Shown: in pieces, positions 512-35,989 of the stretch
Layout of the letters: the number at the start of each line of letters is the position of its first letter
How positions within the stretch are numbered: the stretch's first letter is position 1
Source of the DNA: a virus
Lineage: Duplodnaviria > Heunggongvirae > Uroviricota > Caudoviricetes
Length of the DNA: 64,000 bases
IMG/VR virus record: IMGVR_UViG_3300035034_002381
Span: 1 to 64,000 of that record
Strand: one strand, 5' to 3'
The notes under the pieces: model-generated
Told to the model about the DNA's origin: nothing
Databases searched by the model: none
Seen by the model: only the letters and a program-made list of their open reading frames with translations
Translations under genes and position numbers: made by a program

Positions 512-586
512 GACGCGGATAAGGCACAGGTAGTCTTGACAGTCTGTAAAACTGTTATGTTATGGGTTCGAGTCCCATGCGCGTCA
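512..586 (+). tRNA. tRNA-like, anticodon GTA on a class I (short variable region) body
   Basis: acceptor gacgcgg/gcgcgtc (7-66 G.G), anticodon arm acagt-ctGTAaa-actgt, T atggg-ttcgagt-cccat; isotype uncertain. Confidence 0.55.
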
Positions 587-587
587 C

Positions 588-673
588 TGAAGTGTACCCG
601 AGCGGTTTGCAGGGACCAGACTGATATTCTGGGAGTATTTTACTCAACGTGGGTTCGAATCCCATCACTTCAA
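588..673 (+). tRNA. class II tRNA with Tyr-like D-arm but anticodon loop ctGATat
   Basis: perfect acceptor tgaagtg/cacttca, D ccc-gagcggtttgca-ggg, anticodon arm ccaga-ctgatat-tctgg, variable arm gagta-tttt-tactc, T gtggg-ttcgaat-cccat. Confidence 0.6.
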
Positions 674-9154: not shown

Positions 9155-9245
9155 GGAAGATAAAGCAGCTGCATTGGAGCGGCGACTAGCCTTGAAAACT
9201 AGGTCTCGGAGAAATCTGGGTGGGGTTCGAGTCCTCTGTCTTCCT
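9155..9245 (+). tRNA. tRNA-Ser(TGA)
   Basis: acceptor ggaagat/gtcttcc, anticodon loop ctTGAaa, long variable arm, T gggg-ttcgagt-cctc. Confidence 0.75.
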
Positions 9246-9277
9246 CAAAGTTTTAGTTCATTGACATATTAATATTA

Positions 9278-9361
9278 GAGGATGCGGTAATGGTGGTTAT
9301 TACAGTATCTTGGAAAGGTACCGATCGTTTATTCGGTCAGGGTTCGACTCCCTCATCCTCT
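9278..9361 (+). tRNA. tRNA-Ser(GGA)
   Basis: acceptor gaggatg/catcctc, anticodon arm gtatc-ttGGAaa-ggtac, variable arm gatcg-tttatt-cggtc, T aggg-ttcgact-ccct; ends uncertain by 1 nt. Confidence 0.75.
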
Positions 9362-9365
9362 GCTA

Positions 9366-9488
9366 TGTTCTTCTTAGAATAACTAATTTATGTAAATGTG
9401 AGTTCGAATCTCATCAAATGCTTTTAGCATCTGTAGCCAAATGGTTAGGCAATATACTTGAAATATATAACAAACGATTAGAAGAACA
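9366..9488 (+). ncRNA. circularly permuted tRNA-like element closed by a 9-bp leader-trailer helix
   Basis: order: helix 5' strand tgttcttct, CTTAGAATAACTAATTT, T-arm gtgag-ttcgaat-ctcat, capped acceptor hairpin caaatgc-tttta-gcatctg, ta, D-arm gcc-aaatggtta-ggc, anticodon arm atata-ctTGAaa-tatat, helix 3' strand agaagaaca. Confidence 0.5.
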
Positions 9489-9492
9489 ACAT

Positions 9493-9565
9493 GCTTCCAT
9501 AGTATAAAGGTTCATTATTCCTGTTTTGTAATCAGGCGATATCGGTTCGATTCCGATTGGGAGCT
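9493..9565 (+). tRNA. tRNA-Thr(TGT)
   Basis: acceptor gcttcca/tgggagc, anticodon loop ttTGTaa (31-39 T.T), T atcgg-ttcgatt-ccgat. Confidence 0.75.
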
Positions 9566-9714
9566 CAATGAATATGATGTTTATTTAGATCCTAAAAATG
9601 ATTATCTTATTGGTATAGATAGTAAAAAAATTGAAAAGGTCGAAGAATTGTATAATGTGCGTAATAATAGACAAGGATAATTTATCTTGGAATGATATTC
9701 AAAATAAAATAAAT

Positions 9715-9795
9715 GTTTCAGTGGTGGAATGGTAGACACGTCGGTCTTAGGAACCGATGCCGAAAGGCGTGAGAGTTCGAGTCTCTCCTGGAATA
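9715..9795 (+). tRNA. tRNA-Leu(TAG), canonical class II
   Basis: acceptor gtttcag/ctggaat, D gtgg-aatggtag-acac, anticodon arm tcggt-ctTAGga-accga, variable arm tgccgaaaggcgt, T gagag-ttcgagt-ctctc. Confidence 0.8.
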
Positions 9796-9796
9796 C

Positions 9797-9876
9797 ACTC
9801 TGGTGGATTAGGTAAATTGGTACAGCTAAACGGCTTAGACCCGTATCCCTTCTGGGTTCGAATCCCAGTCAGAGTA
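9797..9876 (+). tRNA. atypical 80-nt tRNA, anticodon TAG (Leu codons), expanded D region, short variable region
   Basis: acceptor actctgg/tcagagt, D region tggattaggtaaattggtacagctaa, anticodon arm acgg-ctTAGac-ccgt, T ctggg-ttcgaat-cccag, A73. Confidence 0.55.
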
Positions 9877-9881
9877 CAAAT

Positions 9882-9961
9882 GCTCCTGTGGTTTATGTAA
9901 ATTGGCACAGCTAAGCGGCTTAAACCCGCAACCTTTATGGGTTCGAGTCCCATCAGGAGTA
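9882..9961 (+). tRNA. atypical 80-nt tRNA, anticodon TAA (Leu codons), same family
   Basis: acceptor gctcctg/caggagt, D region tggtttatgtaaattggcacagctaa, anticodon arm gcgg-ctTAAac-ccgc, T atggg-ttcgagt-cccat, A73. Confidence 0.55.
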
Positions 9962-10056
9962 CAAAAGTTTATCAACGTCTTGAGTCAAGTTGGATGATGA
10001 CAAAAAGGCTAACGGCAGAAGTGAATCCATCGCACTGTGTTACATAAACTTTATCT

Positions 10057-10129
10057 GGCCAGGATTCTCAATTGGACGGGACTCTGTCTTCTAAACAGAT
10101 GTTTGTGGGTTCGAATCCCATCTTGGTCT
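10057..10129 (+). tRNA. tRNA-Arg(TCT)
   Basis: acceptor ggccagg/cttggtc, D tctc-aattggac-ggga, anticodon arm tctgt-ctTCTaa-acaga, T gtggg-ttcgaat-cccat. Confidence 0.85.
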
Positions 10130-10135
10130 CTAAAC

Positions 10136-10209
10136 GCAGGTATACCTAAGTGGTTTAAAGGAGCGGATTGCAAACCCGTTATTCATTGGTTCGAATCCAA
10201 TTACCTGCT
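10136..10209 (+). tRNA. tRNA-Cys(GCA)
   Basis: perfect acceptor gcaggta/tacctgc, anticodon loop ttGCAaa, T attgg-ttcgaat-ccaat. Confidence 0.8.
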
Positions 10210-10214
10210 CACTT

Positions 10215-10297
10215 GGAAGGTAACTTGATGGTGATAGAGGTAGTTTGCTAAACTACTGGCCGTTTACTCGGTCGAGGTTCGATTCCTCTGCCTTCCG
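10215..10297 (+). tRNA. tRNA-Ser(GCT)
   Basis: acceptor ggaaggt/gccttcc, anticodon arm gtagt-ttGCTaa-actac, variable arm ggccg-tttact-cggtc, discriminator G. Confidence 0.8.
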
Positions 10298-10301
10298 CTA
10301 T

Positions 10302-10379
10302 GCTCCTGTGGATTATGTAAAAGCACAGCTAACACCTTGAGGAGGTGATCCTTTGTGGGTTCGAGTCCCGCCAGGAGTA
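10302..10379 (+). tRNA. atypical 78-nt tRNA, anticodon GAG (Leu codons), same family
   Basis: acceptor gctcctg/caggagt, D region tggattatgtaaaagcacagctaa, anticodon arm cacc-ttGAGga-ggtg, T gtggg-ttcgagt-cccgc, A73. Confidence 0.55.
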
Positions 10380-10382
10380 CAA

Positions 10383-10476
10383 AGAAGCAAAGAGTTAGTT
10401 AGGTTAGACTGGCTTGTTATGTGGTGAAATTGGTAAACGCGAGCGCTTTGGTGCTTAGTAACCTTAACACTTCTTA
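10383..10476 (+). ncRNA. tRNA-derived fragment (Leu-type D-arm, no T-arm) flanked by 6-bp complementary ends
   Basis: aagaag/cttctt ends; internal gtggtgaaattggtaaacgc resembles the Leu D-arms at 9715 and 10788. Confidence 0.3.
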
Positions 10477-10479
10477 TTT

Positions 10480-10553
10480 GCTGAGTTAGTATAGTCGGTT
10501 TATTACGATACCCTGGTACGGTATTAACACCAGTTCGATTCTGGTACTCAGCT
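10480..10553 (+). tRNA. tRNA-Thr(GGT)
   Basis: perfect acceptor gctgagt/actcagc, anticodon arm atacc-ctGGTac-ggtat, T accag-ttcgatt-ctggt. Confidence 0.8.
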
Positions 10554-10565
10554 CATGAAAAATAT

Positions 10566-10645
10566 GCCTCTGTGGATTATGTAAATTGGCACAGCTAACG
10601 GTTTCAAACTCCGATCTTTTATGGGTTCGAATCCCATCAGAGGCA
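10566..10645 (+). tRNA. atypical 80-nt tRNA, anticodon CAA (Leu codons), same family
   Basis: acceptor gcctctg/cagaggc, D region tggattatgtaaattggcacagctaa, anticodon arm cgg(t)-ttCAAac-(t)ccg, T atggg-ttcgaat-cccat, A73. Confidence 0.5.
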
Positions 10646-10661
10646 CAAGTAGGAGAAATTT

Positions 10662-10746
10662 AGTCCAGTGGCGAAACAGGTATACGCACAAGATTTAAGC
10701 TCTTGCTTCCATTGAGGAATTGCGGGTTCGATTCCCGCCTGGATTA
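10662..10746 (+). tRNA. tRNA-Leu(TAA), canonical class II
   Basis: acceptor agtccag/ctggatt, D gcga-aacaggtata-cgc, anticodon arm caaga-ttTAAgc-tcttg, long variable arm, T gcggg-ttcgatt-cccgc. Confidence 0.8.
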
Positions 10747-10749
10747 CTA

Positions 10750-10781
10750 AGTTAGTACGGGTTCGATCCCCGTCTTGGCTA
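10750..10781 (+). ncRNA. second tRNA-like minihelix (acceptor-like stem plus T-arm)
   Basis: agttag/ttggct (wobble-rich) enclosing acggg-ttcgatc-cccgt; no D or anticodon arm. Confidence 0.35.
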
Positions 10782-10787
10782 CTAAAT

Positions 10788-10899
10788 TTGACCGTGGTGA
10801 AATTGGTAAACACACCCTTAAATCAGGGAGTATGAGAATATGTACTTGAAGCTGACGCAGAACATCATACATATGTAGGTTCGAATCCTATCGGTCGAA
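10788..10899 (+). ncRNA. 112-nt tRNA-like RNA (Leu-type D-arm) with a roughly 46-nt extra arm
   Basis: acceptor ttgaccg/cggtcga, D gtg-aaattggtaaa-cac, weak anticodon-position hairpin ccct-taaatc-aggg, extra hairpin atatgta...tacatat, T gtagg-ttcgaat-cctat. Confidence 0.45.
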
Positions 10900-10904
10900 C
10901 AAAT

Positions 10905-10978
<74 letters not shown>

Positions 10979-10983
10979 CTATC

Positions 10984-34122: not shown

Positions 34123-35022
34123 ATGATATCAGAAGAAAAATTTCCCGATGGACAAATTAATTTTAAAGCAAATACAGAGGACATCAAAAGTCTTTTAACA
34201 CCACCATACATTTTATCAAATGATAATGCGATAAATTTTACAATTGATCTAAGTAACTGGGATAAATTTCAAACTTTGTTGGCAGCCAATGCAAAATTTA
34301 GACAAACGCACAAACAAATTAATTTACATATAGGTTATCTTTTTGGTTCAAGAAGTGACCGTAAATTTGAACATGACGGAATTAACTATTTTCGTGATGT
34401 AATTGCTAAAACAATCAATGATCAAAATTTCAACAAAGTTACTGTATTTGATCCACACTCACTTGCAGTAGAAAATGCAATTAATAATTGTGAGAGTATT
34501 CATCCGTTCCCACAAATCAATCACCATTTTTTAAATATGGTTGGAAATTTAGATTTATCTGAATATGAAATTGTTATAGCGTCTCCAGACCTTGGGGCAT
34601 ACAAAAAAGTCTTTGGAATTTTTGCTAAATTTTCCGAAAAATATCCAAACATACATTTTAATTTTATTTCCGCAAATAAAATTCGTAGTCTGTCTGGTGA
34701 TATTTCTATGGTTTTAAATCCACCATATAAAGAATTTGACAAATCAAAAAAACGAATTCTATATTTAATTGATGATATTTGTGATGGCGGGAGGACCTTT
34801 ATAGAATTTGCTAAACTTCTTAACGAAGATTTTGAGAAAAAGTATCTATATGTATCACATGGAATATTTTCTAAAGGTCTTGATCCATTATTAGAACATT
34901 TCGATAAAATTTTTACTACAAACAGTATTTCGAATACTTATATCAAATATCTAACAAACGATAATACCATTCTAAATTCTAACATTCTTTTTACCACATT
35001 TATTTCGCAACGCAATGAATAA
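34123..35022 (+). CDS. ribose-phosphate pyrophosphokinase (Prs)-like enzyme; candidate ADPR-pyrophosphate synthetase (Adps) of NARP1
   Basis: 299 aa; VFDPHSLAVENAI resembles the Prs DLHA loop, and YLIDDICDGGRTF is a type I PRPP-binding loop. Confidence 0.6.
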   Translation: MISEEKFPDGQINFKANTEDIKSLLTPPYILSNDNAINFTIDLSNWDKFQTLLAANAKFRQTHKQINLHIGYLFGSRSDRKFEHDGINYFRDVIAKTINDQNFNKVTVFDPHSLAVENAINNCESIHPFPQINHHFLNMVGNLDLSEYEIVIASPDLGAYKKVFGIFAKFSEKYPNIHFNFISANKIRSLSGDISMVLNPPYKEFDKSKKRILYLIDDICDGGRTFIEFAKLLNEDFEKKYLYVSHGIFSKGLDPLLEHFDKIFTTNSISNTYIKYLTNDNTILNSNILFTTFISQRNE

Positions 35023-35989
35023 AAAAGCAACAATTCTTCTTGGACTGCCATTAGCAGGCAAGTCGACTTATATAGGAAACAGAATAGAATATGGTGATTG
35101 GTCAGACACAGGATTAGTTTTAGTATCTGCAGATGATCTTAAAGAAAATCATGAAGATTATGATCCCGACCATGCGTATAAAATTCATGAGTGGTCAGTT
35201 AAAGAGGCCGAAAGGCAAATGAAAGAATACTCAGAATTTGGATCAAAACACATTATCATGGACGGTGGTGGCATTAACAATTCATATACTCGTAGAATTA
35301 TGTCTGATCTACGTTTAAAAGGTTATGAAATTGAACTTATACATATTAAAACGCCGCTCCAAGTTTGTCTTCTTAGAAATGAGAAGCGGGTCCGCAAAGT
35401 TCCAGTGCATGATATTGTAACAAAGGCAGCTCGAGAACGTAAACAATATGAGATACTTAAAGATGTTGTAGATAGTGTTACTATAGTTCCATATTTCACA
35501 AACAAACATATTTTTATAGATATGGATGGAGTTATTGCGGGACAGTCTGTCTTGCCAGAATTTGAAGGAAAAATAGATTTTGTTAATAGCGAAATTTTTA
35601 CTATTTTACCACCTGTTCATCAAGTTATTGATAAACTTAATAGTCTTGATTCTGAAAAACATACACTTTATATTTTATCAGCAACACCGAATTCATATTC
35701 GTATACTGAAAAACATGATTGGTTAGATAAACATTTTAACATACCAAGAGAACGCAGATTTTTTGTAAATGCTGGAAAGCATAAAGCAGAAATGTTAGAA
35801 AATCTAAGAATAAAACTCAAAACTGATAAACGTGATGTCACTCTGATTGAAGATACGCACTCGACACTTAAAGATGTTAGAGACCTTAGAATGAATCCAA
35901 TACATGTATCTGAATTTTTATCAAATGATTTTTTGCGAGATGAAGAATTATATGACTATAAATATTACGAAAACCCAAATAATAAATAA
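35015..35989 (+). CDS. P-loop kinase fused to HAD phosphatase (T4 polynucleotide kinase/phosphatase-like architecture)
   Basis: GLPLAGKST Walker A; IMDGGGINNSYTRR and RNEKRVRKVPVHDI parallel T4 Pnk ISDTNLNPERR and RNSKRGTKAVPIDV; C-terminal FIDMDGVIA is a DxDG HAD motif. Confidence 0.5.
   Translation: MNKKATILLGLPLAGKSTYIGNRIEYGDWSDTGLVLVSADDLKENHEDYDPDHAYKIHEWSVKEAERQMKEYSEFGSKHIIMDGGGINNSYTRRIMSDLRLKGYEIELIHIKTPLQVCLLRNEKRVRKVPVHDIVTKAARERKQYEILKDVVDSVTIVPYFTNKHIFIDMDGVIAGQSVLPEFEGKIDFVNSEIFTILPPVHQVIDKLNSLDSEKHTLYILSATPNSYSYTEKHDWLDKHFNIPRERRFFVNAGKHKAEMLENLRIKLKTDKRDVTLIEDTHSTLKDVRDLRMNPIHVSEFLSNDFLRDEELYDYKYYENPNNK

Follow-up and report, generated by a model that had tools for sequence, protein, structure and literature searches.

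A dense array of nine transfer RNA (tRNA) genes, predicted with ARAGORN at positions 229-1094, lies near the start of the 64,000-nucleotide stretch analysed here (the window), which covers positions 1 to 64,000 of the Caudoviricetes record IMGVR_UViG_3300035034_002381. Two adjacent genes of this array, on the given (plus) strand like all the others, combine a body and an anticodon of different tRNA classes: the gene at 588-673 has a class II body, with a long variable arm, and the anticodon GAU (623-625), and the gene at 512-586 has a class I body and the tyrosine (Tyr) anticodon GUA (546-548). They follow a class II tRNA with GUA (349-431) and a canonical class I isoleucine (Ile) tRNA with GAU (437-510), which gives the gene order Tyr-Ile-Tyr-Ile. 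The intergenic gaps between 349 and 828 measure 1 to 5 bases only, so that both unusual tRNAs are presumably cut from a precursor shared with their array neighbours. To our knowledge, the textbook rule is that in bacteria and their viruses only the tRNAs for leucine (Leu), serine (Ser), Tyr and selenocysteine (Sec) have a long variable arm, a rule on which synthetases, tRNA-modifying enzymes and a number of nucleases of defence systems depend.

Structure of the class II GAU tRNA

The gene at 588-673 (89 nt in the ARAGORN prediction, which runs to 676) forms a cloverleaf of 7/5 geometry with a perfect 7-bp acceptor stem (588-594/666-672), a D arm of the Tyr/Ser type (CCCGAGCGGTTTGCAGGG, 597-614), an anticodon arm (616-632) with a 5-bp stem and the loop CUGAUAU (621-627), a variable region of 16 nt (633-648) containing a 5-bp stem (633-637/641-645) with a UUU loop, a standard T arm with a 5-bp stem (649-665) and an adenine discriminator (A73, position 673). 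An encoded CCA end follows at 674-676, the only one in the array; in the other genes the discriminator and one C lead directly into the next gene. The Rfam tRNA score is 51.1 bits (gathering score 29), and the minimum free energy (MFE) structure is the cloverleaf (−28.8 kcal/mol, z = −2.8). The original prediction, made from the letters of the sequence, had named the perfect acceptor stem, the 16-nt variable arm and GAT in the loop, all of which were recovered by ARAGORN, Rfam and the MFE fold. The likeness of the D arm to that of Escherichia coli tRNA-Tyr, which it also pointed out, holds against the real tyrV gene (fetched from NC_000913), the D arms being CCCGAGCGGTTTGCAGGGA in 588-673 and CCCGAGCGGC-CAAAGGGA in tyrV.

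Isotype was compared with anticodon using 20 home-made profile hidden Markov models (HMMs), built from the canonical-architecture tRNAs of the fetched phage loci and blind to the anticodon, which was masked; they are a stand-in for the isotype models of tRNAscan-SE, crude, and wrong on the window's own Val gene. They gave 588-673 26.1 bits with Ser, 15.3 with Tyr and 9.2 with Ile; the Leu profile was outside the six best (<12.1 bits, real Leu genes scoring 45-61), and the control, 437-510, reached 51.2 bits with Ile. Ser and Tyr thus rank above Ile, and the MFE folds of both 588-673 and 512-586 are cloverleafs, from which we conclude that the mismatch between body and anticodon is real and that no alternative fold with a consistent isotype lies behind it. 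To this extent the original interpretation stood. Its proposal that the pair might be anticodon-loop variants that escape nucleases did not, since the loops are ordinary and the same as those of the canonical counterparts, and it is the body, with its variable arm, that is unusual.

A conserved phage family

Relatives of 588-673 were searched for with the signature CCCGAGCGG, 4-8 nt, GGGA, 5 nt, CTGATA, which leaves the acceptor, anticodon, variable and T stems and position 38 unconstrained; because the D arm and CTGATA are fixed by the search, their invariance is uninformative. The signature was found at 9 loci in IMG/VR, each of them a tRNA within a tRNA array, and at 61 loci in metagenomes, mostly from freshwater going by the record names. 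Together these loci hold 50 class II GAU genes besides the window copy, with 29 distinct sequences when the latter is included. A search of 185,579 bacterial and archaeal genomes gave 19 matches, approximately the chance expectation, none of them in a tRNA gene; BLAST against 50,697 GenBank phage records found no match for 505-680, which holds the two unusual genes, or for the family consensus, and tblastn of 38 window open reading frames (ORFs) found none in the flanks of the family loci.

In the family alignment (A1), 99.6% of the cloverleaf cells are paired, and 13 of the 24 pairs have changed on both sides, including six of the seven acceptor pairs and all four pairs of the variable stem, which occurs as GUGA/UCAC, AUAC/GUAU, ACAC/GUGU, GCGC/GCGC and, in the window, AGUA/UACU. 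None of 500 shuffles reached the observed pairing and covariation values, and slid registers fall far short of them. The window copy forms all 24 pairs and has double changes at 1-72, 3-70, 4-69, 5-68, 6-67 and 31-39 as well as in the variable stem. A73 is present in 29 of 29 family sequences, and the variable stem is of 4-5 bp. Scored with the family covariance model (R1), the window copy obtained 89.6 bits over model positions 1-85 and the other members 103-115 bits, followed by class II tRNAs with GUU (75-77 bits), the genuine class II tRNA-Tyr(GUA) of the same phages (53-56 bits), class II tRNAs with GCA (50-55 bits), class I tRNA-Ile (45-46 bits) and generic tRNAs (47 bits or less). The gene at 588-673 is therefore a divergent yet clear member of a conserved family of class II GAU tRNAs, found in this analysis only in phage contigs; our literature searches turned up no account of phage class II tRNAs for Ile or Asn. 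A class I GAU gene is also present at 34 of the 50 family loci and, when only the loci flanked by 1 kb or more on both sides are counted, at 12 of 13.

These results bear on the idea, also raised originally, that the unusual genes are decaying paralogues, becoming pseudogenes after tandem duplication of a Tyr-Ile pair. The Tyr-Ile-Tyr-Ile order suggests such a duplication, and a clearly truncated tRNA is found nearby (308-347). For 588-673, decay is excluded by the family-wide compensatory changes, which indicate selection on structure, and by the wide distribution of the family; nor is this gene a copy of the adjacent class I Ile gene, to which its identity is 0.43. As an account of the pair we regard decay as very unlikely, though it may apply to 512-586. 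A recent swap between the adjacent Tyr and Ile genes was considered separately and ruled out, as 588-673 belongs to an old and widespread family whose D arm was never found with GUA when searched for on its own in IMG/VR.

A role outside translation for one or both genes, as a decoy or sponge for tRNA nucleases or toxins, as a spacer in precursor processing or as a regulator, appears improbable to us, although it has some precedent, as certain irregular tRNAs are charged yet unused in translation (PMC5389517). The minihelix at 308-347 shows that non-decoding tRNA-like pieces are tolerated or used in this array, and the few-base spacers mean that each tRNA-like fold takes part in the processing of its neighbours. 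However, the family conserves the anticodon loop (CUGAUA by design of the search, position 38 and the 5-bp stem freely), A73 and the 7/5 geometry, which are the needs of a decoding tRNA and go beyond those of a decoy, and the window copy encodes its CCA end.

The probable amino acid identity of 588-673

Our assessment, held with only a little more than even confidence, is that 588-673 most likely accepts Ile, its identity following the anticodon on a remodelled class II scaffold. The D-arm pattern alone, with the anticodon left free, retrieved nine GAU genes, one GUU gene, 29 chance matches outside tRNAs and no GUA gene from IMG/VR. The GUU relatives (e.g. that of locus L112) carry G73, the discriminator of asparaginyl-tRNA synthetase (AsnRS), and the GAU genes carry A73. 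Over all fetched loci, long-armed and short tRNAs with the same anticodon have the same discriminator: G for Asn, U for Cys, Thr and Gly, C for His, and A for Glu, Val and Ile. This tracking argues against an identity set by the body, which would give a common A73 or G73. Furthermore, the loop CUGAUAC (C38), uncommon in other tRNAs (10%), occurs in 27 of 29 class II and 13 of 17 class I GAU genes of the same loci, which suggests common constraints on GAU tRNAs of both classes. As to codon meaning, ATT and ATC of the window align with I, L or V, and TAT and TAC with Y, in homologues taken from phage loci that were found via the SPFH-like gene at 1201-2661 and that have no such array in their fetched flanks. 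Discriminator tracking, the shared GAU loop and the standard meaning of Ile and Tyr codons all favour an identity that follows the anticodon.

The alternative is that 588-673 has an altered identity, being charged according to its body by the seryl-, tyrosyl- or leucyl-tRNA synthetase (SerRS, TyrRS or LeuRS) and placing Ser, Tyr or Leu at AUU and AUC as a deliberate low-level mistranslation. SerRS and LeuRS ignore the anticodon, the body scores best with Ser and Tyr and poorly with Ile, the D arm matches that of tyrV, and viral contigs hold Ser-type GAU tRNAs with G73. Yet bacterial Ser identity uses G73 and a longer variable arm, so that A73 and a variable stem of 4-5 bp fit SerRS poorly; a tRNA-Ser would combine the long arm with G73, and 588-673 has A73. 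By E. coli identity rules U35 is the main TyrRS determinant, and A35 and U36 of GAU abolish it. In a D arm of the Leu type, a stem of 3 bp carries a long loop (GNGRAAUNGGUAGAC); 588-673 shares A73 with tRNA-Leu but has the D arm CCCGAGCGG...GGG. The discriminator also co-varies with the anticodon, the GUU sisters having G73, the anticodon loop is that of the co-resident class I tRNA-Ile, and homologues keep I, L or V at ATT and ATC. Finally, a normal tRNA-Ile(GAU) is nearly always present, and a class I gene beside the class II gene makes clean, codon-specific recoding impossible. Low-level mistranslation has been proposed for allo-tRNAs and for the nematode nev-tRNAs, of which nev-tRNA-Ile(UAU) is leucylated in vitro (PMC3333845). 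On balance we judge altered identity to be unlikely for 588-673.

Several observations nevertheless weigh against the assignment to Ile. The isotype HMMs prefer Ser and Tyr, as given above. The elements used by an E. coli-type isoleucyl-tRNA synthetase (IleRS) are A38, C4-G69, U12-A23 and C29-G41; 588-673 has U38, A4-U69, C12-G23 and A29-U41 instead, whereas C4-G69 and U12-A23 are both present in the class I Ile gene of the window. Ser-type bodies with G73 occur among the other long-armed GAU tRNAs of viral contigs, for which reason identity following the anticodon is no general rule, and the long-armed nematode tRNAs with an Ile anticodon are charged with Leu (PMC3333845).

If 588-673 does accept Ile, IleRS would charge it through G34-A35-U36, A37 and A73, and it would read AUU and AUC beside the ordinary class I tRNA-Ile, the variable stem presumably being retained because folding of the class II D-arm core requires it. 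The most likely origin of the family is a change of anticodon in a Tyr/Ser-like class II tRNA, i.e. alloacceptor remoulding, a process well known in mitochondria and eukaryotic nuclei (PMC4783518, PMC3923123). Its nearest relatives are class II tRNAs with GUU and G73, and the R1 ranking (GUU, then class II Tyr and Cys, then class I Ile) fits single-base anticodon steps: GUA is one change from GUU, GCA or GUG, and GUU one more from GAU. This suggests remoulding of a class II Tyr-like scaffold in which the discriminator changed with the anticodon. Another route to a long arm is represented by the Asn gene of locus L094, in which an arm has been inserted into an otherwise typical class I body for Asn.

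The short tRNA with a Tyr anticodon

The gene at 512-586 (76 nt in ARAGORN, 512-587) has the anticodon loop CUGUAAA, G1-C72, A73 and a variable loop of 5 nt, and its MFE fold is a cloverleaf; a Tyr anticodon loop with a short variable region is thus present, as had been predicted. A search with its D loop retrieved two IMG/VR phage contigs, L101 and L102, each with an 84-nt class II tRNA-Tyr. The D arm of 512-586 is the same as theirs (AUGGCACAGGUAGUCAU and AAGGCACAGGUAGUCUU, with a compensatory change at 11-24); compared with the L101 gene, the anticodon loop and its flanking bases are identical (UCUGUAAAAC), the T arm is near-identical, and a gap of approximately 10 nt falls at the variable stem-loop of L101. 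Judging by this comparison, the best reading of 512-586 is a phage class II tRNA-Tyr from which the variable stem has been lost, seemingly in this lineage alone. With G1-C72, A73 and GUA kept, it would still be a TyrRS substrate, though probably a poorer one.

Short GUA tRNAs are common in viral contigs: at least 59 of class I length occur among the first 120 loci listed in IMG/VR, some with C1-G72 and others with G1-C72. C1-G72 marks the archaeal or eukaryotic type of tRNA-Tyr; 512-586 shares the short loop with that type but has G1-C72, and it shares GUA with bacterial tRNA-Tyr but has no class II body.

Other findings speak against this tRNA being an intact Tyr acceptor. It has a G7.G66 mismatch, its best match in the Rfam clan is tRNA-Sec at 31.5 bits, below the tRNA-Sec threshold, and the D-loop search returned no relative with the same short form. 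No isotype profile exceeds 21 bits. A phage tRNA-Tyr whose variable loop was deleted lost its rescue function in E. coli (PMC12673091), which calls for caution over full function of 512-586. The mismatch, the weak covariance score, the absence of a fitting profile and the lack of a short-form relative are what the decay reading would expect; on the other side, there is no damage to the anticodon loop, the T loop, G1-C72 or A73, and a compensatory change relative to L101 has preserved the D arm. The gene may be functional or may be decaying.

The class II GUA tRNA at 349-431 had also been noted, and ARAGORN predicts it as an 84-nt gene (349-432; Rfam 45.3 bits) with A73. Its D arm has a 3-bp stem and an 11-nt loop (GCG-AAACAGGUAU-), a type also found in the phage's own tRNA-Leu(UAA) at 10662-10746; the tRNAs nearest to it are Leu(UAA) (0.71-0.72 identity), the isotype HMMs give Leu 35.2 and Tyr 30.4 bits, and it has exactly the T arm of the L101 tRNA-Tyr. 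This tRNA is ambiguous, and by E. coli rules it could be a substrate of both LeuRS and TyrRS. A pattern search combining the Leu-type D arm with GUA returned two tRNA fragments only and no relatives.

The remainder of the array and the window

The array begins with a tRNA with the anticodon CAU (Met or lysidine-type Ile2; 229-302, Rfam 65.4 bits). The canonical tRNA-Ile(GAU) at 437-510 (75 nt in ARAGORN, 437-511) scores 74.5 bits with Rfam. Downstream of the two unusual genes, ARAGORN and Rfam place an initiator-like tRNA(CAU) at 680-753, Val(UAC) at 756-828, Phe(GAA) at 868-940 and His(GUG) at 1022-1093. Between the first two genes lies the element at 308-347, read from the sequence and its fold as a minihelix or the remnant of a tRNA, in which an acceptor stem stacks on a T arm (AUUCAGA-UAAGGUU-CUGGGUUCGAAUCCCAG-UCUGAAU-A; −13.7 kcal/mol, z = −3.0); neither ARAGORN nor Rfam calls it as a tRNA, and it looks like one from which the D arm and anticodon arm have been precisely deleted. 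BLAST of the array (200-1150) against GenBank phages gave generic tRNA matches only.

The window belongs to a large, AT-rich phage (approximately 31% G+C), whose major head protein shares approximately 40-43% identity with its counterparts in the Prevotella Lak megaphages and other huge uncultivated phages, and its sequence is also present in three public assemblies (ENA ERZ27315366, JGI 3300023049 and Logan SRR7141805). The SPFH-like gene downstream of the array (1201-2661) has homologues at 8 related phage loci (61-70% identity); these have a transfer-messenger RNA (tmRNA) gene and a few tRNAs instead of the array, hence no orthologues of the array genes. In the related huge phages L001 and L004-L008 the tmRNA, with tags ending in ...GEVAYA, ...GEVALA and similar, stands upstream of the homologue of 1201-2661, where the window has the array. 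An alternative genetic code was ruled out by long ORFs under table 11, with 31 TAA, 6 TGA and 1 TAG stops. Among approximately 37 window ORFs scanned with Pfam and/or PHROGs, five ORFs of at least 150 aa being outside the scan, no phage-encoded synthetase was found. A 647-aa protein encoded at 4529-6472 matches a PHROG annotated as RNA-binding protein (E = 8e-16), and two weak Rfam matches to YrlA (Y RNA-like), at 380-493 and 10846-10958, overlap tRNA clusters; these might hint at a module of the Ro/Y-RNA type, or the YrlA matches might be mere tRNA-like noise.

Apparent tRNA class switching in large-phage arrays

Long-armed tRNAs with GUU, UGU, GCA, UUC, CAU, GUG, UAC and UCC were also found in the fetched loci, usually adjoining a short copy, along with short versions of Leu tRNAs. 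A scan for long-armed GAU tRNAs (GAU, then a GGGTTCRAATCCC T arm at class II distance) gave 34 more genes of several body types. Solitary long-armed GAU tRNAs with Ser-type bodies occur in the IMG/VR contigs L256, L262, L265, L272, L274, L289, L294, L296, L301, L317, L323, L325, L326 and L328. These have a GCCGAG-GG D arm and a variable stem of 5-6 bp, many have G73, and in some the acceptor pairs 1-2 are mismatched; several of the contigs are taken to be proviruses from the genome-style numbers in their IMG/VR names. GAU is one change from the Ser anticodon GCU.

A second tRNA cluster of the window, at 9155-10979, holds Ser tRNAs of the 8/4 type, two short-loop Leu-like paralogues and a 112-nt tRNA-like sequence. 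An 8-bp acceptor stem with a 4-bp T stem (by ARAGORN or the MFE fold) is seen in the Ser-like tRNAs at 9155-9244, detected by Rfam alone at a sub-threshold score, and 9277-9362, and in Arg(UCU) at 10057-10129. The Leu-like paralogues (9882-9961 and 10302-10379) have the acceptor strand GCUCCUG, A73 and the anticodons UAA and GAG. Their variable loops are short and their D region is oversized and odd, which gives them the appearance of class I forms of tRNA-Leu. The tRNA-like sequence at 10788-10899 scores 35.7 bits with Rfam tRNA; its D arm is of the Leu type, and its variable region contains an insertion of approximately 44 nt.

Taken together, the class and the isotype of tRNAs seem to have come apart repeatedly, and in both directions, in the tRNA arrays of large phages; we found no paper describing this. 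A bolder and rather doubtful generalisation is that large uncultivated phages switch tRNA class systematically, adding an arm to tRNAs for Ile, Asn, Thr, Cys, His, Glu, Met, Gly and Val, removing it from those for Tyr and Leu, and keeping canonical copies alongside. The result could be a correctly charged second set of decoders whose shape hides it from the tRNA nucleases and toxins of the host, or from the phage itself when it attacks host tRNA, with the pair at 512-673 as one instance.

Possible benefit and significance

A second GAU decoder might add capacity for the decoding of very frequent codons: Ile makes up 8.2% of the residues in the window ORFs, more than any other amino acid, and ATT and ATC together make up 6.1% of codons, so that such a decoder is plausible on demand alone. 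More speculatively, a class-switched shape unlike that of host tRNAs might lower the exposure to nucleases or toxins directed at tRNA. Retron-Eco7 and the Schlafen-type tRNases show that the shape of a tRNA can determine whether it is targeted. We know of no nuclease that spares a long-armed tRNA-Ile, which weakens the suggestion. The ORF at 35015-35989 encodes a protein resembling a P-loop kinase plus HAD phosphatase (PHROG 'polynucleotide kinase', E = 7e-13), possibly an RNA-repair enzyme to go by this match; T4 repairs nuclease-cut tRNA with an enzyme of this kind. The window showed no recognisable RNA ligase. Host defence systems acting by depletion of particular tRNAs are well documented (PMC12673091, PMC11555353): Retron-Eco7 PtuAB, for example, cuts E. 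coli tRNA-Tyr in the variable loop, and a phage tRNA-Tyr evades it only with its own variable loop (PMC12673091). Nuclease escape by class-switched tRNAs, though speculative, is consistent with the demand for Ile, these defences and the polynucleotide-kinase-like ORF.

Should IleRS tolerate a long arm in nature, this would be useful for engineering orthogonal or tagged tRNAs; should 588-673 instead be mischarged, some phages would mistranslate Ile codons on purpose. Class switching in large-phage arrays, a broad pattern for which we found no description, is testable as an anti-defence strategy and of interest to specialists in tRNA and phage defence.

Comparison with known tRNAs

Bacterial tRNA-Tyr (E. 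coli tyrV/tyrT) resembles 588-673 in its class II body, Tyr-type D arm (CCCGAGCGG...GGGA), anticodon stem (CAGAC/TCTG), short paired variable arm and A73, and differs in having GUA where 588-673 has GAU; with 512-586 it shares G1-C72, A73 and GUA but not the long variable arm, which 512-586 lacks. Canonical tRNA-Ile(GAU) has GAU, A37 and A73 in common with 588-673, and the loop CUGAUAC is common to the wider family and the co-resident class I tRNA-Ile; in contrast to the class I architecture with its 4-5-nt variable loop, 588-673 is class II with a Tyr/Ser-type D arm, and it is without C4-G69, U12-A23 and C29-G41.

The original statement that no class II tRNA-Ile is known needs qualifying, since long-armed tRNAs with the Ile anticodon UAU occur both in nematodes (the Leu-charged nev-tRNA, PMC3333845) and among the allo-tRNAs (PMC5389517), and viral contigs hold the other long-armed GAU tRNAs described above. 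The nematode nev-tRNAs likewise place a long arm on an anticodon of a class I amino acid (Gly or Ile) and are conserved within their lineage; they are, however, eukaryotic, with a Leu-derived body and UAU or CCC, and have been shown to be leucylated (in vitro for UAU), whereas 588-673 is Tyr/Ser-like and the evidence favours Ile (PMC3333845 for the nev-tRNAs). Allo-tRNAs and the (8/4) phage tRNA-Ser/His (PMC5389517) are also long-armed, carry diverse non-Ser anticodons and in part lie in phage tRNA clusters; their geometry is 8/4 or 9/3 and their discriminator G73 or U73, as befits Ser identity, while 588-673 was found to be 7/5 with A73. In alloacceptor remoulding (PMC4783518, PMC3923123), too, a tRNA is nearer to another isoacceptor family after duplication and anticodon change; the described cases are from mitochondria and eukaryotic nuclei, and we found none described across tRNA classes in phages. 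A precedent for 512-586 is the type I tRNA-Leu of Streptomyces coelicolor, a class II isoacceptor in short-loop form that is still charged, LeuRS charging type I and type II tRNA-Leu alike (PMC6614811); it differs in being a Leu tRNA of a cellular genome whose charging was shown experimentally. The nearest published analogues are thus the nev-tRNAs, the allo-tRNAs with the (8/4) phage Ser/His tRNAs and the Streptomyces type I tRNA-Leu, beside which the tRNAs at 512-586 and 588-673 stand as non-canonical, probably remoulded tRNAs, the latter with a conserved family behind it that was found here only in phages.

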